This document shows, piece by piece, positions 2,305 through 49,906 of a DNA stretch of 64,000 nt. Below the pieces are notes generated by a model that made no database searches, had not been told where the DNA came from, and worked only from the letters and a program-made list of their open reading frames with translations. Source of the DNA: Ignavibacteriota bacterium (lineage in GTDB: Bacteria; Bacteroidota; Ignavibacteria; UBA10030; UBA6906); the NCBI GenBank assembly GCA_963808715.1, contig CAWEHG010000036.1, positions 8,391 through 72,390 on the forward strand, read 5' to 3'. Numbering within the stretch: position 1 is the stretch's first letter; each line of letters begins with the position of its first letter. Both the position numbers and the translations under genes were made by a program.

Positions 2305-3724
2305 ATGGAAGCCATCTTCTACGATATCGTCTTCTTCTTCCAGGCGTCGTACGACACCCTCTACGTCTTTACCTTCATTGTTGCGGTCTTCCTCCTGTTC
2401 AGCGGACTCGACGATCTCGCGGTGGACTTCTACTACTGGTTCCTCTACTTCGTGCGGCAGACGCACATGGAGAAGTACCAGCGCCTCCCCCTCGAACAGC
2501 TCCACTCCGCCACGCAGAAGCCGGTCGCCCTCTACGTGCCGGCCTGGCACGAGGAGGACGTGATCGAGCAGATGCTGATCCGCGCCTGCGAGACGATCGA
2601 CTACGAGAAGTACGACATCTTCGTCGGGGTCTACCCGAACGACCCGGCGACCACCGCCAAGGTGGAGGGGGTGTCGAAGATCCACCCTCACGTGCACGCG
2701 GTCGTGGCGAGCCACCCGGGCCCCTCCACGAAAGCGCAGAATCTGAACGACATCTACGCCGGGATGCTGCGCTATGAGAACCAGACCGGCATCCGCTACG
2801 ACATCGTCGTCCAGCACGACTCCGAGGACCTGATCCACCCGCTGGAGCTGAAGGTCTTCAACTTCTTCATCCCCGACCACGACATGGTGCAGCTGCCGGT
2901 CTACCCGCTGGTCACCCCGTTCAAGAAGATCGTCCACTGGACCTACTGCGACGAGTTCGCGGAGAACCACACGAAGGACCTGATGGTCCGGCAGGAATTT
3001 TCCGGGTTCACCCCGTCGGCCGGCGTGGGGACCGGCTACAACCGGTGGCTGATCGAGTTCGCCGGCACCTCCTTCGCGAAGAACCTCTTCAGCCGGTCGT
3101 CGCTCACCGAGGACTACGACTTCGCGCTGCGGCTGGCGCTCGGCGAGGCGAAACTGCTGTATCTCTACCGCCCCTTCGGCGTCAACATCGCGACCTGGGC
3201 CTATTTTCCCGCAGACCTTCTCCACCGCCGTCCGGCAGCGGACCCGCTGGCTGATCGGGATCTGCATCCAGGCCTGGAAGAACTACGGCTGGGTGGGGAA
3301 CACCAGGTTCCGTCTCACCCTGTACCGCGACCGGAAGGCGGTGATCACGAATATCGTGAACGCCCTTTCATATGTCGTGCTGGTGTACGTTCTTCTGTAT
3401 GAGCTGGCCACCTGGGCGCTGGCCGAGTACGGGCAGCTGGTCCCGCTGGTGAACCGGGGGACGCTGCTCTGGGGGATCGTGCTGGTGGACACCTGCCTGA
3501 TGCTCTGGCGGTTCGTCCACCGGTTCATCAGCGTCAGCCGCATCTACGGCCGGAAGGCCGGCATGCTCAGCATCCCCCGGCTGCCGGTCAGCAACATCAT
3601 CAATTTTACGGCGACCGCCCGCGCCATCAAGCAGTATGTTGTTTCGCGAGTCAACGACCGACCGGTCAGGTGGGACAAGACGTCCCACACGTTCCCGACC
3701 GGCACCGAAGCCCCCACCATCTGA
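2305..3724 (+). CDS. nfrB: NfrB-like family-2 membrane glycosyltransferase (exopolysaccharide synthase), 1 frame change
   Basis: ORF 2305..3402 and ORF 3293..3724 join near ~3205. Motifs I recall from E. coli NfrB are present: FSGLDD, VPAWHEE, GVYPNDP, PGPSTKAQNLN, HDSEDLIHPLEL, QLPVYP, SAGVGTGY, SLTEDYDF, and then FSTAVRQRTRWLIGI, YRDRKA and VRWDKTSHTFP. The protein ends at TGA 3722-3724, without the long C-terminal c-di-GMP-binding extension of the E. coli protein. Confidence 0.75.
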
Positions 3725-3728
3725 GGAT

Positions 3729-4097
3729 ATGGTCATGGCCCAACGAGTGCTCTACGCCGAGGACGAGGAGATCATGCGGACGCTGGTGTCCGACCAGCTC
3801 AAAGAGGAAGGGTACGACGTCCGGACCGCGGCGGACGGCGAGGAGGCGGTGGAGATCCTGGCGAAGGAGTCGTTCGACCTGATCCTGCTGGACATCAAGA
3901 TGCCCCGCCGCGACGGGATCGACGTGCTGAAGTTTTTGCGGGAGAAGAACCTGCGTCCCCGCGTGGTGATGCTGACCGGGGTGGAGGACGTGTCGATCGC
4001 GATCTCGTGCGTGAAGCTGGGGGCGATCGACTACGTCACGAAGCCCTTCTCGCTGGAGGCGCTGCTGGAGTGCGTGAAGAGGGTGCTGGCGAAGTAG
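3729..4097 (+). CDS. Stand-alone CheY-like response-regulator receiver domain
   Basis: ATG 3729 lies 4 nt after the nfrB-like stop codon. Receiver pattern: ..RVLYAEDEEIMR.., ..FDLILLDIKMPRRDGI.., ..VVMLTG.., ..DYVTKPF.. The protein is 122 aa with no output domain, and the ORF is intact. Confidence 0.85.
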   Translation: MVMAQRVLYAEDEEIMRTLVSDQLKEEGYDVRTAADGEEAVEILAKESFDLILLDIKMPRRDGIDVLKFLREKNLRPRVVMLTGVEDVSIAISCVKLGAIDYVTKPFSLEALLECVKRVLAK

Positions 4098-4635
4098 ACG
4101 CAGGTGGGGTATATCGCAAAGGCCTGTCTGCGGCAGGCAGGGAGTGTGGCTTTCGGATTGGTGTTAGAACGGGGTGATTTGACGGGAAATACGCTCCTGG
4201 TGTGATGCTCTTCAGCTTCCATTCATGACTCACAGATCCCTGCGGCCGCCTGCAGACGATCGATCGTACAGAGGTGAAGCTAAAAAAGAGGAGGTGAGAA
4301 ATGTAACTGAAGATTAAAGAAAAGAAGAAAAAAATTATGGTAGGGAAAAATTATATCTCAGTTAGATGAGAAGAGAAAAAAATGAATAAAAAATGAATAG
4401 GTAAAAGAATGAAAGAAGTAAGAAAAAAAGAAAGAGTAAAAAATGGAAGAAGGATAATGTAAGAAGATGATAGTGGAAAAAGTCTAAGGCAGTGAATGGA
4501 GCAAAAGGAGAGAGAATAAAAAAAAGGATTAGTGTAGCTTAAAGGGGCTATGATTGGAAAAGTTGAAAAGATAGGGGCGAGCAGAGATATAAAAGTTAAA
4601 ACGGAGCGCACACAATGGGGCGCTACATTCCGAAA

Positions 4636-4759
4636 GATAGACAAAATTGGGGATAAACTAAGGAGAGGGGAGATAGTATATTTAACAAAGCAGTAGTTCT
4701 TAAAGCTAAGGGGAGAGAGTGAAAATATGATAGACAGTGTGAAGATATAGGGTGAGATC
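4636..4759 (+). repeat. A-rich repeat family, copy a (AGATAGACAAAA..GGGGATAAACT..GGAGATAGTATAT..GTGAGATC)
   Basis: GGGGATAAACT is at 4649-4659, GGAGATAG at 4669-4676 and GTGAGATC at 4752-4759. The same ordered motifs recur at 5141-5243 and 5507-5615. Confidence 0.4.
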
Positions 4760-5140
4760 TTCTATGCGCCGGGCGAGGTGAGGATGCTGCGTGTGCCGGA
4801 ATCAGTGACCCACCAAGAGTTTTGCACCATGTATCTCGTCAAGATATGGTAGCAGTGCAGCGGAGACCAGCGCGGAAAGGAAGTGCATAGTCACGACATG
4901 GAAGTGCTTGGACAGGACGAAACGGAGATAGATATAGAAGTAAAAGTGGGCTAAAGGGGAAGGAGTGGATAGGCAAGAGAAGAGATGAAAGTGGAATACT
5001 TCAATATACTCGACCTGTACTGAGAAAGATAAATACCCGTGGCGACGTGTACACATCGCCCCGGCATGCCAGACGGGTCGCGATCTGACGAACCACCTCT
5101 GCGAGGCCTCCAAGTATGGAGAGTAGCTTGAGGAAGTATG

Positions 5141-5243
5141 GAGGATAAACTCATTAGTGGCTATACTCTCTGATAGTATATGAGACAGTAACATATGGAT
5201 AAGATTAAAATATAAAGAAAGAGAAAAAGATGTGAGATTGATC
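5141..5243 (+). repeat. A-rich repeat family, copy b (GAGGATAAACT..GATAGTATAT..GTGAGATTGATC)
   Basis: GAGGATAAACT is at 5141-5151, GATAGTATA at 5172-5180 and GTGAGATTGATC at 5232-5243. Confidence 0.4.
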
Positions 5244-5506
5244 TACACAACACAGTACAGCACTCTCGCTACTCACCGGACAAGATCAGGAACAGTATAT
5301 CTTGGTATTTATCTCATCAAGAGCAGCTTCCTGATGATCGCTGCACTTCCTGCCTGCTCGTACGCAAACGGCAAGGCGCGGAGGGGAAAAATACTGGTTG
5401 CAGGAGGGATACTAATAAGTGAAAAGGGAAAAAGATGTGAAGTAGTAAGGGTAAAAAAAGAAAAAAGGGGAATATTTGAGAAATAGGAGGAATGCAAGGA
5501 AGCGAG

Positions 5507-5615
5507 AAAATAGACAAGCAGATAGGGGATAAACTTAACACTACTGAAAGTTAGATAGACTAAGGAAAGAGAGATTTAGTATTAGTAAAGAGAGAAGGAC
5601 GGCGATGTACGGATC
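5507..5615 (+). repeat. A-rich repeat family, copy c (AAAATAGACAAG..GGGGATAAACT..GAGATTTAGTATTAGT..GTACGGATC)
   Basis: AAAATAGACAAGCA is at 5507-5520 (compare AGATAGACAAAA at 4636-4647). GGGGATAAACT is at 5525-5535, and GAGATTTAGTATTAGTAAAG starts at 5571. Confidence 0.4.
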
Positions 5616-6852
5616 GTATAACGCCAAGGACCGCTTCGAGGAGAGATGAATCCCGTGATCTACGACCAGGAAATGGGCAGGAATGGAAAGATATCCATCA
5701 GCAGGTGCAGAAGGTGACCAGGCACTCGTACGCTCTGAATGGCGGCCGATGAGGTAAGCCAGGAGGGCGCTGTAAAAGGTAAAGGTGTTCGTCGAAGAGT
5801 TCGCAAATTCGATCGTCGTTCCGGTGGCGCCAGGCCAACGAGAATGCCTGGACGGGATCATACACGTGGGCAGACCTGAAACACCGCTTGACTACTGTAA
5901 TCGGCGAGTGGCACATAGGGGATCTTCGAAAGGCGATAATAGAACCGGAACGCGAATTCAGGGCCCTGGCTCATGGTGAGGGATAGTGGGCTAAGACCAC
6001 GGACGAGAAGGGTTAAAAATCTTAGCTGTAGGAGCTAGCTTAGATACTAGACTGGATCTAGACGATGATCACGCTCGTGTCATTGAACCCCGCCGCTGTT
6101 GAAAGCTAAAATGCTTTGAGGGCGATCTCGCGATGGCTGGGGCTCACGTAGTATTGTAAAATTCTAGTTCCGGCGAGGGAAGTGAGTGCGGTCACGACGA
6201 ACACGAAGAGAAGAGCTAAAGATCTAAATTAAACGAGAAACATAGAGGTACAATCATATTTTAGGCTTAAACAATTACTGGAACGGAGGGTACTCTCTCA
6301 GAGATTAAAGGTAAATGTAAAGATGGAGATAGAGATAGTAGTAATTACCTGTTTGAAAGATACCCGGAGAAGCTCAACGGCTTGCTCCTTTTCTCCCAGG
6401 ACAGCCGCGATGCAGGCCGCAGATACGAGATCCACCCGGGCTGGGATGGCTCCTTCAACCTCTGCAGCATCGCCGATGACAGCAGGGCTTTCTTCAGATA
6501 ACACTGCCTGGATGAGATCGATGCAAAGCGAGAACTGAACCTAGTAGACATCAGGGAGATCTCTGGCGAGTGGACTACCATATAACTCTGGATCATAAAA
6601 TAGAAAGGCGTTATAAAAGAAGAAGGGAAAGGCGAGAACGCTCAGACGAACGCATCTCTTCAGAGGCTTGTTCCTGTAACACTGGATAGATTGGTCGAGA
6701 ATCGAAGATGAAGCACTGAAAAAAGAGTGAGAGCGCAATTACTGCGCTGCCAGAGACATGGTACCGCACAGGGAGTATAGCACAACGTCGGGGAGCCACG
6801 GGCTTACCGAGACGACTGCATGATCTCTTGACTTTAAGCTGCGGCAAGAGCT

Positions 6853-7021
6853 AGAATCTAATAATGCAGTGAGAGAGAATGGGTTGGGTTTGCTTAATGG
6901 AATGAAGAGAGTAAAGGAGATAGTATTAGTGATTTAAAAGCATATGATTGGAGGTGGTAAGATCGCAAAATATAGAGGGAGAGTCTCTGACATATCTACT
7001 CTCTGCATCAATGTGTAGAAA
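6853..7021 (+). repeat. A-rich patch bounded by the direct repeat AGAATC; looks like a ~170-bp insertion into relic coding sequence
   Basis: AGAATC occurs at 6853-6858 and 7022-7027. Inside the patch, GGAGATAGTATTAGTG starts at 6916 and GTAAGATC is at 6957-6964. The patch sits between minus-strand relic motifs whose spacing is about 180 nt longer than I recall for the intact domain. Confidence 0.35.
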
Positions 7022-7157
7022 AGAATCGAGGCCTGATGTGGGAGATCCACCGCGTTGCCATAGAGATCCGACAGATAGAAGACATCATCCCATCGCAGGA
7101 TCCTGGCACATCGATAGCACCACGAAGGGCAGCTGCACAGTTACACAGCAAACAGGC

Positions 7158-7850
7158 TTACTGCATATACACATTCGACGGCACCCAGGTCGTGAAGACG
7201 CCGATGTGAGCGGGCGAGGATGCGAAGATCGAGTCTGCTTGCGCGTCAACGAAGCGATTCATATGTGACCACACAAGGAAGATGTACGCGATAGCATAGT
7301 TAGAATAGATCTCTGAGGCGCGCTGGAAGTGCGGCAGGGCTCTGCCGTACTCACCCTGATCAAAGAACTTGAAGCCCTGGATGACTTCACGATAACCGAA
7401 GTCCATGACTTTCACCTGGTTCTTCGTGTTGACCATAATATTGTCCGCCTTGATGTCGCGGTGGACAATTCCGTGCGTGTGGGCTTCGTGGAGGGCTTCC
7501 CCGATCTGTAAGGCATAACCGATCGCGTCCTGAATCTTCCTGACAGGGACGACTTCCCGGAGCGTCTTCCCTTCCACGTACTCCATGACAATGAATTGTT
7601 GCCCTTCGTACTCCTGAATGTCGTGGATCGTGCAGATATTGGGATGGTTCAGGATGCCTGCGGCCCGGGCCTCGTCAAGAAATCGTTCCCGTTGGGGTTC
7701 ATGGGCAACGAGACTCTCAAGCAGAAACTTCAGTGCGACGGTGCGGGTGAGTTTCAGATCCTCGGCTCGATACACGACACCCATGCCGCCCTGCCCGACC
7801 TGACTGAGGATCTTGTAGTGAGAGACCGTCGCTCCGACGAGGTCCATCAT
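7158..7850 (-). pseudogene. Hanks-type Ser/Thr protein kinase truncated after the DFG motif and fused in frame to one TPR-like unit
   Basis: MMDLVGATVSHYKILSQVGQGGMGVVYRAEDLKLTRTVALKFL (G-loop, VAxK), HPNICTIHD, FIVMEYVEG, HGIVHRDIKADNIMV (catalytic loop) and VKVMDFG (DFG at 7395-7403). The sequence then goes directly into YREVIQGFKFFDQGEYGRALPHFQRASEIYSNYAIAY and stops at 7158. The activation loop/APE and subdomains IX-XI are absent. GC content is intermediate (29-37 G+C per 60 nt in two sampled lines). Confidence 0.8.
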
Positions 7851-7942
7851 CAGCGCCTCCCTGTCAGGTCGGTCAGGCGGACTTCGCCGAGTTTCTTGAG
7901 GATCTTGTAGTGGGGAATGGTCTGGCCGATCACGGGAGTCAC
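7850..7942 (-). pseudogene. Orphan 5' fragment of a second Ser/Thr kinase gene (..VIGQTIPHYKILKKLGE..)
   Basis: A 30-codon minus-strand ORF reads (V)TPVIGQTIPHYKILKKLGEVRLTDLTGRR*. Its stop overlaps the ATG of the kinase (TGATG). It shares a 16-nt identical stretch, TGAGGATCTTGTAGTG (7897-7912), with the kinase's own HYKIL region (7805-7820). Confidence 0.5.
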
Positions 7943-8135
7943 CAGGTGCGTGAATGGTCCCTTCGGCGCGAAGGTTCAGCGGTACGGGAGGAAAATAGCC
8001 AAGAAGAGCGCAAGAGTCAATTGCGTGCAGAGGATCTGGAGTTGAGGGATAGCGCCCGCAATGACGGGCCAATGCCATTGGCAGGGGTGAATTGCGGTTC
8101 TACGATGAGAAGATGTTTGGATCTTTTCTGATCGG

Positions 8136-10030
8136 CTACTTGAGCAACAAGCATACGTTTTGTTTCGACGTGGTTCCCTGCCCTGAGACGGTACAGGTAG
8201 GTCCCCGAGGCCAGCTGCCCCGCGTCGAAGTGCAGCGTATACTCCCCCGGCGCCTTCCGCTCGTCCACCAGCGTGGCGACCTCCCTCCCGAGCAGATCGA
8301 ACACCGCAATGTTGACCTGACCGAATTCCGATATCCGATATCTGATCTCCGAATTCATGTTGAACGGGTTGGGATAGTTCTGGAAGAGCCGCGCCTCGAA
8401 GGGAACGTCCGCGAGCGGAGAAAGACCGAGCGGCACCCCCTCCATCGGCAGCTCCACGTACGACGGATCAGCGCCCCCCAGGTAGACCGTCGCCGAAGCG
8501 TTCGAGAGCATGGGGATCGTGAACGGGTATTTCCCCCACGTCGGACGGTTGTTCGCATCCACGTTCGTCAGCTCGATCCGGATCTTGTTGCCCTTCGTGA
8601 ACCTGTGCGCGTGCGCGATCCCTTCCACGTCAACCACCCCCGCAGAGCCCGGGATCCAATCCCTCTGCGGTGAAGACGACCCGGTTCACAAAATACTTCG
8701 CCCCGGAGGGGTCCACTTCGTAGACGTGCAGGTGGAGCGGGAACTGCCGCGAATCCGACCGGACCTGAAGGCGCATACGCGGCACGCCGAACCACTGGAG
8801 ATCCCTCGTGAGCGGCTCCGTGGTGAATGCCAGGACCTTCTTCGGGATGACCCTGTCGAAGTAGGCGCCCTGGAAGTTCTCCCAGTACCCCATCTCGAAC
8901 GTATAGCCGGTGTCCATCACCGAGTTCACCAGCCGGAGGGAATCCCTCTTCCCCGCGGGCGACCAGTATGACAGCGCAGAGTCCCTGTCCAGGTAGAAAC
9001 GGAACGGCTGCGTGGTTGCGGGGGGCCAGGCGGACATCGATGTGTGCGCCCAGGTGAAGTTCCCGGCACTGTCCATCGGGAGCGAGCTGTAGCCGCAGAC
9101 CACAGGGGATTCGGCGAGGATGCCCGTGGCTTCGCCCTTCAGGAAATAGCCGAACCACCGGCTGACCTGGTCGAACTGGACCGAATACTCGCCCTGGGAG
9201 TCGTCGGAAAAATGTCCCCCGGTCCCGAGGTAGAGCCTCTTGACCGCAGGGTAGCGCCGGTACATCTCGATCCCTTCAGCCGGCGTGAAGTAATGGTCCT
9301 GCCACTTCAGGAGGAGCGCCAGAGGGATGTTCGAACGGTCCAGCGCGGCCGTGTCGAGGTCCCGCGTGCGGCAGAGCAGACGGCGGAGCGAGTCCAGCTG
9401 ATCGGTCGCGAGAAGCTGCCAGAGGGTGTCGCGGACAGGGGCGTACCGCACCGACTGCGAACGGAAGAGCAGCATCAGCGTCCGGCGCGCCGAGCCGTTG
9501 GAGAGCATGTCGGAGGCCCAGTGCGGGACGATCACGTTGGCCGAGACGGCGCGAATGCCCGGGGTGTCCATCAACGCCCAGAGAGCGTGCAACCCTCCCT
9601 GCGAGCCTCCCGAGACGCCGATCGCGGTGGAATCGACGGAGGGGAGTTTTTTCGCGAACTGCAGGACCCGCCGAAAATCCTCACGCTCCTGCGAACCCAT
9701 GATGCTGGACAGCCCGCTGGAGTTGCCGTGACCCCGCACGGTGATCGCCAGCGTGGCGTATCCCATCCGGGCGTAGATCTCGCAGTTGGGGATCTCGTCG
9801 TTCTTGTCCAGCCCGAATCCGTGGACGAAGACCAGTACGGGGAACCCCTTCGGGGGCGGAGCGGTCGGGGGAAGAACGTAGGTGGCATCGAGGCTGTCCG
9901 CGGGACCGACCGGGATCCAGGTGTCGTAGCGGGTCTGTGAGAAGGCGGTAGAAAGTCCCAGGATCAGGATAGCCGCCACGCCGATGGCGTGGTAAACTCC
10001 GACGCCTGAGACGCGGAGACATATTTGCAT
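8136..10030 (-). CDS. Secreted alpha/beta hydrolase (CocE/NonD / X-Pro dipeptidyl-peptidase S15-like) with T9SS C-terminal domain; 2 frame changes
   Basis: ORF 8630..10030 has a signal peptide (..AIGVAAILILGLSTAFSQ) and the nucleophile elbow GVSGGSQGG. It continues after ~8640 in ORF 8017..8637 with the T9SS domain: ..LFQNYPNPFNMNSEIRY..DLLGREVATLVDE..GTYLYRLRAG..TKRML. One more slip hides the expected ..LLLK* stop (TAG 8136-8138). Confidence 0.75.
9972..10005 (+). repeat. 34-nt hairpin-containing repeat, copy 1 (GCCGCCACGCCGATGGCGTGGTAAACTCCGACGC)
   Basis: It matches 59574-59607 at 32 of 34 positions. The 7-bp stem is CCACGCC/GGCGTGG with a 3-nt loop. It lies about 30 nt downstream of the CotH-BNR stop codon, inside the annotated 5' end of the hydrolase ORF. 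Confidence 0.6.
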
Positions 10031-42670: not shown

Positions 42671-42959
42671 GGTCAGCTCCTTGTATGTGATCCGAAACGT
42701 CTGATGAACCCCTGTCGGCAGGAATATCGTCAAAATGTGTGCCCGTTGCCACTGAGGTTTAAACCACTTAGGCCCTGATTTCACGTGGAATGAGAACTTT
42801 TTTTCCTATCTATAAGAAAATGAAACCGTATTTCCGCGAAAGTGTGGTTATGCCCCATTTTGTTGCCGTTTTTGTCAGTTTCTGTGCATGGGGAATATGC
42901 AGAATGGCCGGCTTGCACCGGTGCGGAGGAGTTGCTAAGTTATGCACCGGAGGTGTTCT

Positions 42960-49231: not shown

Positions 49232-49795
49232 TCACGCCTTCACCCGCTCTATGTACCCCCCCGTCCTGGTATCGATCTTCACCGAGTCCCCCTCGTTGAT
49301 GAAGAGGGGAACGTTCACCGACGCCCCGGTCTCTACCTTCGCGGGTTTGGTGCCGGGGTTGGCACTGTCACCCTTCACCCCGGGGACCGTCTCGACCACC
49401 TTCAGCTCCACCGTGATCGGCATCTCAACACCCGTGATCTCCGACCCGTTGAACAGAATGTCGACGGACTCCCCCTCCTTCAGGAAGTGCGCCCCCTCCC
49501 CGATCGCCTCTTCGGAAACCGGGATCTGCTCGTAGGTCTCCTTCTCCATGAAGACGTAACCGGTCCCGTCATGATAGAGGAACTGGAACTCCTTCCGCTC
49601 GATCCGGATGATGTCGATGGCCTCCCCGGCACGGAACCGGTTCTCGATCACCTTGCCGCTGGCAAGGTTCTTGAGCTTCGTCCGAACGAATGCGCGCCAG
49701 TTTCCCGGGTTGACGTGCTGGAACTCAATGATCTGCCAGAGCTCGTTGTTGTATTTTATCACCAAACCGGGTCGAAAATCAGAAGTACTGGGCAT
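49232..49795 (-). CDS. efp: Elongation factor P
   Basis: ATG 49795 gives MPSTSDFRPGLVIKYNNELWQIIEFQHVNPGNWRAFVRTKLKNLASGKV.. The gene is intact at 187 aa, and the order efp-accB-accC is a classical one. Confidence 0.9.
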   Translation of the reverse strand: MPSTSDFRPGLVIKYNNELWQIIEFQHVNPGNWRAFVRTKLKNLASGKVIENRFRAGEAIDIIRIERKEFQFLYHDGTGYVFMEKETYEQIPVSEEAIGEGAHFLKEGESVDILFNGSEITGVEMPITVELKVVETVPGVKGDSANPGTKPAKVETGASVNVPLFINEGDSVKIDTRTGGYIERVKA

Positions 49796-49906
49796 AAATC
49801 CTTGAGTTTTTGCTAGAAATGCATGAGATAGGGGAGAAAATATACAGAGACGGGGTATGAAAGTCAAGCTATTGACTCTGAGAGCTATTCCTGCTACCGT
49901 TCACCC

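Follow-up and report, generated by a model that had tools for sequence, protein, structure and literature searches.

Long-read metagenome assemblers produce 'non-existent' regions of up to > 5 kb that have zero read support, as well as variable sites that only one read supports (Trigodet et al., bioRxiv 10.1101/2025.04.22.649783), and metaFlye applied to nanopore data yields 7-44 zero-coverage regions > 1 kb per 100 Mb (PMC13087279). The locus described here, in a 64,000-nucleotide stretch of DNA (the window), resembles these regions in being a kilobase-scale stretch of an otherwise good contig that has no homology, sits at a site variable between closely related populations and belongs to an assembly with indel errors. 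It differs in that those papers describe no A-rich, C-free composition, and in that good sequence, including a genuine kinase fragment, makes up the right end of the block. The closest described proteins are bacterial Hanks-type Ser/Thr kinases (STKs) whose C-terminal sensor regions are TPR or TolB-like, as found in an Ignavibacteriota MAG (L081) in a tandem of 876 aa and 974 aa. In oxidative G>T (C>A) damage, 8-oxoguanine pairs with A, and the resulting base exchange, limited to one strand, matches the one in the patches described below. Known oxidative damage alters a small fraction of sites, however, whereas the patches have lost 70-90% of their C and no gene can be recovered from them.

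The anomalous sequence forms part of a discrete block that relatives lack (Table 1). As siblings we used seven short-read contigs of relatives from six independent samples, which share the left flank at 84-94% nucleotide identity; there was no sibling genome among GTDB representatives, where the best response-regulator match was 43%. By blastn, 4142..8135 (3,994 nt) is missing from 7/7 sibling contigs, and L163, L164, L165 and L167 match the window over 33xx-4141 and then again over 8136-8615. In 4/7 sibling contigs, 41-193 nt separate the response regulator from the convergent S15-peptidase/T9SS-tail gene, and in the closest relative another T9SS-tailed gene sits beside the response regulator. 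Sibling alignments stop at 4123-4141, and the hairpin of the shared spacer also occurs in L163. The response regulator, correctly named by an earlier sequence-only reading as the neighbor of the island, has relatives at 98, 89, 86 and 85% amino acid identity, and the flank is 93.6% identical to L161 at the nucleotide level, with 0 frameshifts over 776 nt. Single-nucleotide indels were found in conserved genes at 3207 (in a T run) and 8150, with a less certain 1-nt gap near 8306 at an alignment edge. The indel at about 8150, identified against L163, destroys the stop codon of the S15 peptidase gene, which has a further 1-nt indel at about 8630 and is split there (ORFs 8017..8637 and 8630..10030). 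Such 1-nt indels and the split gene are typical of a lightly polished long-read assembly.

Table 1. Features of the locus, in window coordinates
Feature	Position	Strand	Evidence or remark
Response regulator gene, single-domain, left flank	3733..4097	+	PF00072; intact, conserved in relatives
Conserved spacer, terminator-like hairpin GCCTGTCTGCGGCAGGC	4098..4141		Last stretch common to relatives
Window-specific block	4142..8135		Absent from all seven siblings
Window-specific spacer, host-like composition (HMM), without ORF or homology	4142..4269		No sibling match
A-rich, C-poor patch, largest (two parts)	4270..4757	+	HMM, base counts; no coding signal, no Pfam match
A-rich, C-poor patch	4920..5035	+	HMM
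A-rich, C-poor patch, T also raised	5112..5241	+	HMM
A-rich, C-poor patch	5382..5599	+	HMM
A-rich, C-poor patch, T also raised	6206..6347	+	HMM
Most coding-like island fragment, '...AACIAAVLGEKEQAVELL...'	6322..6561	-	Weakly like last TPR of STK-TPR proteins
A-rich, C-poor patch	6846..6982	+	HMM
TPR-like segment, in-frame fusion directly after kinase DFG	7161..7394	-	Stop at 7158-7160; sub-threshold Pfam, tblastn
Hanks-type Ser/Thr kinase N-lobe, clean, C-lobe missing	7395..7850	-	Pkinase E 2e-30, profile positions 1-143/263
Second STK N-terminus stub VIGQTIPHYKILKKLGE	7883..7933	-	33 nt upstream of kinase start; compare MIGQTISHYKILEKLGEGG in homologues
S15-family peptidase, T9SS C-terminal sorting domain, right flank	8137..10030	-	PF02129, PF08530, PF18962

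The GC content of the block is about 52%, against 64% in the host, and host composition returns at 8166 (HMM). A comparison of the junction zones at 4142 and 8135 revealed no shared k-mer of at least 8 nt, no terminal repeats and no target duplication. Together with the absence of the block from all siblings, and with kinase relatives that are at most 78% identical as opposed to 85-98% for the neighboring response regulator, these observations are compatible with the whole 3.9-kb block being a chimera or phantom, in which the kinase pieces derive from a different locus or organism of the same sample and the response regulator and peptidase are truly adjacent. We regard such a chimera as improbable, since two false joins would be needed in one short spacer without loss of flank, and the good quality of the right junction (7395-8135) suggests several supporting reads.

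Within the block, the compositional anomaly affects mainly one base on one strand. The + strand of 4098-7157 consists of A 0.341, C 0.172, G 0.287 and T 0.200, compared with A/C/G/T of 0.183/0.318/0.319/0.181 in the whole 64-kb window, and a recount of 4321-4560 (A 129, G 62, T 42, C 7) reproduced the 7 C and 62 G of the sequence-only reading exactly. A 3-state composition HMM, from which we took the patch borders, recovers seven patches within 4270-7157 (1,200 nt summed) at coordinates close to those proposed earlier. All seven are A-rich (0.39-0.52) and C-poor on the same (+) strand and have sharp edges of about 10 nt. C falls from 0.32 to 0.03-0.10, A rises by about as much, and G and T barely change; what had been described as a one-sided N-to-A shift is indeed one-sided, but is more exactly C-to-A. 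In the largest patch, a 31-nt GC-normal gap separates 4270-4601 (A 0.52, C 0.03) from 4633-4757 (A 0.43, C 0.06). Dinucleotide odds within patches are near 1, and by this measure and by self-similarity relative to shuffles the patches look statistically random. When the same screen is run over the 64 kb, only two spots of 100-125 nt pass outside the island, 42776-42900 (T at least 38%, C 0.17) and 49776-49875 (A at least 38%, C 0.11), and both look like ordinary AT-rich intergenic (promoter) regions. In about 2.7 Mb of DNA fetched from other genomes, loci with G+C > 50% contained no comparable stretch, and the matches to the screen came from genomes of 33-39% GC and from one at 49%.

The recognisable content of the block consists only of Ser/Thr kinase gene fragments, namely a 17-aa N-terminal stub, an N-lobe and two TPR-like pieces. 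All N-lobe motifs are present (G-loop GQGGMG, VALK, HRDIKADN, DFG), but the sequence after DFG is unrelated and the complete Pkinase (PF00069) catalytic domain with subdomains I-XI is absent, in agreement with the earlier description of the kinase as truncated. The N-lobe runs for 456 nt without a frameshift, and its low GC is limited to codon position 3 (GC3 72%, against 85% in the host); at least this part is real DNA, which speaks against an artefact. A scan of GTDB representatives with the kinase returned paralogue-level relatives only, and a look-up of the window's own kinase ORF found no record. The TPR-like segment fused to the N-lobe, with its many F, Y, S and W residues, stays below the Pfam cut-offs for TPR_11 (E 0.049, 13.8 bits versus 26.8) and TPR_1 (E 0.084, 13.2 bits versus 27.8), and several STKs match it weakly by tblastn within their TPR region (aa about 510-600). 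At codon position 1 it has an excess of T and correspondingly less G. Several of its residues look like D>Y, G>F/V and A>S exchanges, an anecdotal observation made by hand reading only. STK-TPR proteins give weak collinear tblastn matches at 7388-7215 and 6522-6352, and the fragment at 6322..6561, which has strong period-3 in C, matches five STK-TPR proteins close to their C-termini (E 0.005-0.1); a search of this fragment against 1.84 billion representatives returned only repeat-inflated matches. The weak tblastn matches of the TPR-like pieces to STK-TPR proteins are no more than suggestive. Much like the L081-type STKs, to which its N-lobe is 78% identical (no relative is closer), the block has the full set of N-lobe motifs and TPR-like traces downstream, and its second-start stub recalls their tandem arrangement. 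Unlike them, it has no C-lobe, linker or transmembrane segment, its TPR matches are sub-threshold and its reading frame is not intact, and it is therefore not a functional STK member.

These fragments could be taken at face value, as the remains of a horizontally acquired STK-TPR block that was broken by recombination and deletion and that includes natural purine-rich low-complexity tracts, with the sequence correct throughout. The block sits exactly in an intergenic spacer between two intact flanking genes, which resembles a real insertion and counts against an artefact. The three STK-derived fragments (stub, N-lobe, TPR) also resemble a real gene graveyard, tandem STK genes are present in relatives (L081), and the GC content and codon usage of the block are foreign. 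We still consider a wholly correct sequence unlikely, because it would need a process that strips C from one strand in patches. To our knowledge, there is no form of mutation or selection that depletes one strand of about 80-90% of its C over 115-330-nt patches and leaves G and T untouched. Additionally, the seven patches share one orientation and have no sequence in common, their A lies far above their T, unlike in ordinary AT-rich intergenic DNA, and no domain can be detected in the GC-normal stretches in between.

The sequence-only reading had found no credible gene in the island, and our searches bear this out. The ORFs it had listed exist and are low-complexity, and a six-frame Pfam search of the island, GC-normal gaps included, gave only the sub-threshold TPR match. 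With a C/A-blind codon alphabet the island scored 10/6 nats, compared with 66-177 in 16 control windows; a codon decoder that allows C>A and tracks the frame gave 18-25 nats, while real genes subjected to the same C>A damage in simulation reached 73-189. Given these low scores, a gene masked by pure C>A is an insufficient explanation. Homologue searches with the best-looking island fragments returned repeat-inflated matches or none, and unbiased T>G restoration on the - strand made the two best fragments no more protein-like. These results bear on strand-specific hypermutation (G>T on the - strand, for example by clustered guanine oxidation or abasic-site bypass) and on the integration of purine-rich DNA that a reverse transcriptase or terminal transferase synthesised without a template. 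By composition the island resembles a product of C>A in which G and T were preserved, and the codon-position bias and hand-read exchanges of the TPR-like piece would fit, yet the C/A-blind test reveals no underlying gene, restoration gave no better protein text, and the block offers neither a reverse transcriptase or other such domain nor a template/variable repeat pair. We know of no strand-specific hypermutation process of such intensity, and we judge this origin to be very improbable. We likewise give hardly any credence to the patches being real DNA that some novel process, specific to one strand, has shaped in a recently acquired gene block, for instance by near-saturating, clustered G>T on that strand or by untemplated purine-rich insertions at several breaks.

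The sequence-only reading preferred to see a wrecked STK-TPR gene into which an A-rich element family had inserted. The wrecked gene has support from the N-lobe, the fused TPR-like piece, the collinear matches and the stub. The element family is ruled out, as the best self-similarity within the island (34 bits) is no better than in block-shuffled controls (35.4 +/- 5.5). The window contains no other copies of the island. An IS, MITE or other repeated mobile element was rejected for want of related copies, TIR, TSD and transposase, and a diversity-generating retroelement or other templated hypermutation for want of a repeat pair, in the block or the window, and of a reverse transcriptase domain in the block. 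Pfam detected no transposase or integrase domain in the block either, and no tRNA lies there. Database searches returned neither plasmid nor phage matches for the island, and the Rfam scan proposed earlier (Rfam 15 covariance models over 3600-8600) found nothing at E <= 1. With the lack of genes as the sole point in its favor, we consider it extremely improbable that the island encodes a structured ncRNA or is a mobile element of a known kind (IS, MITE, plasmid or phage fragment); as far as known families are concerned, this reading is effectively refuted. The earlier suggestion of foreign or non-coding-RNA DNA thus survives in its first part, given the absence from relatives and the foreign composition, and fails in its second. 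Adapter and vector remnants (ONT, SMRTbell, Nextera) were all within chance, as was a pGEM polylinker-like NotI-PstI run at 4244-4262.

We find it fairly likely that the patches reflect failed reads or a failed consensus in a strain-specific stretch of poor support, overlying the broken remains of a foreign kinase gene. Of the three readings first offered, the likeliest is accordingly junk from a weakly supported part of an error-prone assembly. The 3-kb island would be the poorly resolved portion of a 3.9-4.0-kb block flanked by two convergent host genes, specific to the strain or to the assembly and lacking in related populations. Its right end (7395-8135) would be well-determined and genuine foreign-looking DNA with Ser/Thr kinase gene fragments, and from DFG leftwards to 4270 the sequence would degrade into noise. 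In the seven patches, base calling or consensus would have failed, probably on one noisy long read or with no read support, such that C was reported as A on one strand and indels were added; the patches would then be no biological sequence feature and have no function. We infer both the technical cause and the support by one read or none. The loss of one base on one strand, the shared polarity and the sharp edges fit a single-molecule read error better than evolution, and the conserved flanks leave no evolutionary time for saturating substitution in the block. Consistent with this class of artefact, the stretch is absent from the assemblies of relatives, has no homology or coding signal except at its kinase/TPR end, and is accompanied by marks of error elsewhere. 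The lack of similar islands in other loci with G+C > 50%, many of them from long-read MAGs, indicates that the artefact is not a common one. The usual substitution errors of nanopore sequencing are transitions and not C>A (PMC8486125). In the literature we found no description of A-rich, C-free junk or of a C>A failure tied to one platform. These points, together with the absence of adapter remnants, count against an artefact. A and C may share one detection channel in instruments that use two colours and two amplitudes.

Overall, the island is more likely assembly noise than new biology. If the artefact is real, about 3 kb of a public contig would be unfit for annotation, gene-content comparison and model training. 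Such stretches would have a recognisable signature, in that sharp patches lose one base on one strand, no coding signal appears even after the confused bases are merged, and the stretch is absent from relatives. Should the sequence instead prove real, an as yet unknown process of hypermutation or DNA insertion, specific to one strand, would be implied, and the interest would be high; the evidence does not favor this. With an artefact, the true state of the locus in this organism would be either no insertion at all or a kinase gene, intact or broken.

Comparison with relatives delimits the DNA in which the island lies. Relatives found with a response-regulator protein query (98, 89, 86 and 85% identity) lie on short contigs of short-read assemblies (JGI, Logan and ENA), and seven such sibling contigs from six samples were fetched and compared by blastn. 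Four of them (L163, L164, L165 and L167) align to the window until 4096-4141 and resume at 8136-8615, which is where the convergent peptidase gene has its 3′ end, with 41-193 nt from stop codon to stop codon of the two flanking genes; two others (L162 and L166) stop short of any downstream gene. Because siblings pass from 4141 to 8136, positions 4142-8135 (3,994 nt, the block) are specific to this assembly, and host composition resumes at 8166, which fits the break in synteny at 8136. L161, the nearest of the siblings (93.6% nucleotide identity across 776 nt), has a convergent T9SS-tailed gene (...FVATRKLVVLR*, L161:751-941) about 45 nt past the regulator stop. From the contig comparison this gene appears to differ in sequence from the window's gene, which would mean that gene content of this spacer varies among close relatives.

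The A-rich, C-poor island described in the sequence-only reading is confirmed, including its base count for 4321-4560 (A 129, G 62, T 42, C 7). The + strand of 4098-7157 has A 0.341, C 0.172, G 0.287 and T 0.200, compared with A 0.183, C 0.318, G 0.319 and T 0.181 in the entire window. A three-state composition HMM reports host-like composition until 4269 and then seven patches totalling 1,200 nt, all of the same polarity and with edges about 10 nt wide. DNA between patches is intermediate in composition (GC ~52%), a state that extends across the kinase block until 8165. Within patches, G (0.23-0.31) and T (0.17-0.25) remain near background and the loss of C is matched in size by the gain of A, so the composition resembles C>A on the + strand (G>T on the - strand). 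Patch sequence is otherwise near-random (dinucleotide odds ~1), except that the few remaining C seldom precede C or G. Palindromic restriction sites (GCGGCCGC, CTGCAG, CGATCG, ATCGAT) cluster at 4244-4262, right before the abrupt A-rich onset; GCGGCCGC occurs seven times in the window. A cloning-vector polylinker at this site was rejected, as the 14-nt match is within chance (score 15, shuffle maximum 14).

Features of the block and its flanks (window coordinates)
Feature	Coordinates	Strand	Evidence
Left flank: GT2 glycosyltransferase and response regulator			
A-rich, C-poor patch	4270-4601	+ (composition)	HMM; A 0.52, C 0.03
A-rich, C-poor patch	4633-4757	+ (composition)	HMM
A-rich, C-poor patch	4920-5035	+ (composition)	HMM
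A-rich, C-poor patch	5112-5241	+ (composition)	HMM
A-rich, C-poor patch	5382-5599	+ (composition)	HMM
A-rich, C-poor patch	6206-6347	+ (composition)	HMM
A-rich, C-poor patch	6846-6982	+ (composition)	HMM
TPR-like segment, 78 codons, in frame right behind DFG	7161-7394	-	TPR_11 E 0.049, TPR_1 E 0.084 (both sub-threshold in Pfam)
Kinase N-lobe, clean	7395-7850	-	Pkinase E 2e-30, profile positions 1-143 of 263
STK N-terminus stub, 17 residues, VIGQTIPHYKILKKLGE	7883-7933	-	Compare homologue N-termini
Right flank: S15-family peptidase with T9SS sorting tail			

Fragments of Ser/Thr kinase (STK) genes occupy the right end of the block. The N-lobe has all its motifs (GQGGMG, VALK, HRDIKADN, DFG), and its nearest relative, 78% identical, belongs to an Ignavibacteriota MAG carrying two tandem STK genes. 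The stub, which belongs to a second STK N-terminus, precedes the kinase start by 33 nt and shares with the kinase's own 5′ end an identical 16-nt run, CACTACAAGATCCTCA, suggesting recombination between tandem kinase paralogues. The C-lobe, linker and membrane segment (~360 residues in homologues) are absent. At the kinase/TPR junction (7380-7425, - strand), near-identical 13-nt words, GTGAAAGTCATGGA and GTGAAGTCATCCA, stand 9 nt apart and could be deletion or join microhomology, or chance. With about 100 full-length STKs of relatives as tblastn queries, two clusters of weak matches were obtained, 7388-7215 against STK residues ~510-600 and 6522-6352 against residues near the C-termini of 710-782-aa STKs, both collinear with STK order. 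In the kinase and in fragment 6322-6561, GC drops only at codon position 3 and position-1 G is normal, which is natural foreign codon usage and not error; the right end is therefore real, foreign-looking DNA built of STK gene fragments. The earlier proposal of an STK/TPR gene wreck invaded by an A-rich element family is partly correct as to the wreck, in the rightmost third of the block. The element family is rejected: the best self-similarity in the island is 34 bits, which 60% of block-shuffled islands reach (35.4 ± 5.5).

Searches of the remaining block returned little. Six-frame Pfam searches of 4142-7400 found nothing except the sub-threshold TPR match, Rfam gave no match at E <= 1, and plasmid and phage collections gave none to the block. 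There were no tRNAs in the block, no adapter remnants, no resemblance to other parts of the window, and no shared k-mers of at least 8 nt, direct or inverted, between junction zones. The most gene-like fragment (6301-6540, - strand) had just three matches among 1.84 billion representatives, repeat proteins unrelated to one another in kind, with scores that are sums across repeats; a + strand candidate had no homologues. When the island was decoded through a channel that models C>A (or G>T) explicitly, using a codon model trained on 23 long window ORFs, it scored 18-25 nats, compared with 73-189 nats for real genes of equal length carrying simulated C>A at the island's own intensity profile. 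In a merged alphabet (A=C, or T=G), immune to any amount of C>A, the island scored 10 and 6 nats (66-177 nats in 16 control windows; 0.7 ± 1.1 in shuffles), and cheap frameshifts lift this to just 15.5. These low scores exclude an otherwise intact gene hidden by C>A; beneath the patches there are either dense superimposed indels or other errors, or DNA that was never coding sequence.

A composition screen (T or A >= 38%) of the rest of the window found two other spots only, 42776-42900 and 49776-49875 (100-125 nt; C 0.17 and 0.11), which look like ordinary AT-rich, promoter-like intergenic DNA and not small copies of the island. No island-like stretch was found among fetched loci of other genomes with G+C >50%, the screen matching 33-39% GC genomes and one 49% GC contig. 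The sole comparable stretch outside low-GC genomes in these loci, L083:6476-6650 (175 nt; A 0.47, C 0.08), is terminal on a short-read contig with 49% GC that comes from an uncultured Bacteroidota.

The assembly itself has errors near the island. Relative to L166, a T run at 3207 has one T too many; this surplus base, probably an assembly indel, splits the GT2 glycosyltransferase into ORFs 2305..3402 and 3293..3724. One extra base at ~8150 (relative to L163) deletes the stop codon of the peptidase gene, whose true C-terminus is likely ...KRMLVLK*; a base is possibly missing near 8306, at the extreme end of the sibling alignment, and a frameshift at ~8630 leaves this gene in two ORFs. The 776 nt that the window shares with L161 are free of frameshifts, and the error rate is accordingly a moderate one and not extreme.

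Among the readings first offered, assembly junk is the most likely. We know of no evolutionary or mutational process that strips one strand, and that strand alone, of 70-90% of a single base, in sharply bounded patches of the same polarity, with neighbouring genes still 94% identical to relatives and no gene recoverable beneath the patches. Such a pattern is what is expected from failure along one sequenced molecule. Real strand-specific hypermutation or untemplated insertion, though it would fit the C>A-like composition, is highly improbable. Long-read metagenome assemblers output regions without read support, up to >5 kb, and can report single-read-backed variants at subpopulation-variable sites (bioRxiv 10.1101/2025.04.22.649783); with metaFlye on nanopore data, such regions are reported to number 7-44 per 100 Mb (PMC13087279). 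Given the one-strand pattern and these documented failures, we prefer a consensus-failure account. Against an artefact are the neat placement of the insertion within the spacer, the clean right end of the block, the typical nanopore substitution errors, which are transitions (PMC8486125), our finding no description of A-rich, C-free junk in the literature, and the lack of similar islands among the other fetched loci. A sequence that is real throughout is unlikely, and a variant in which the entire block is a chimera or phantom is less likely still.

The consensus-failure account, which we hold to be reasonably probable, is that the population, or some minor strain within it, would carry a foreign STK-remnant block between the peptidase and regulator genes, with a consensus that would be sound from the right end as far as the DFG motif and based on very poor data from there to 4270. 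The island most likely lacks any biology in its own right.
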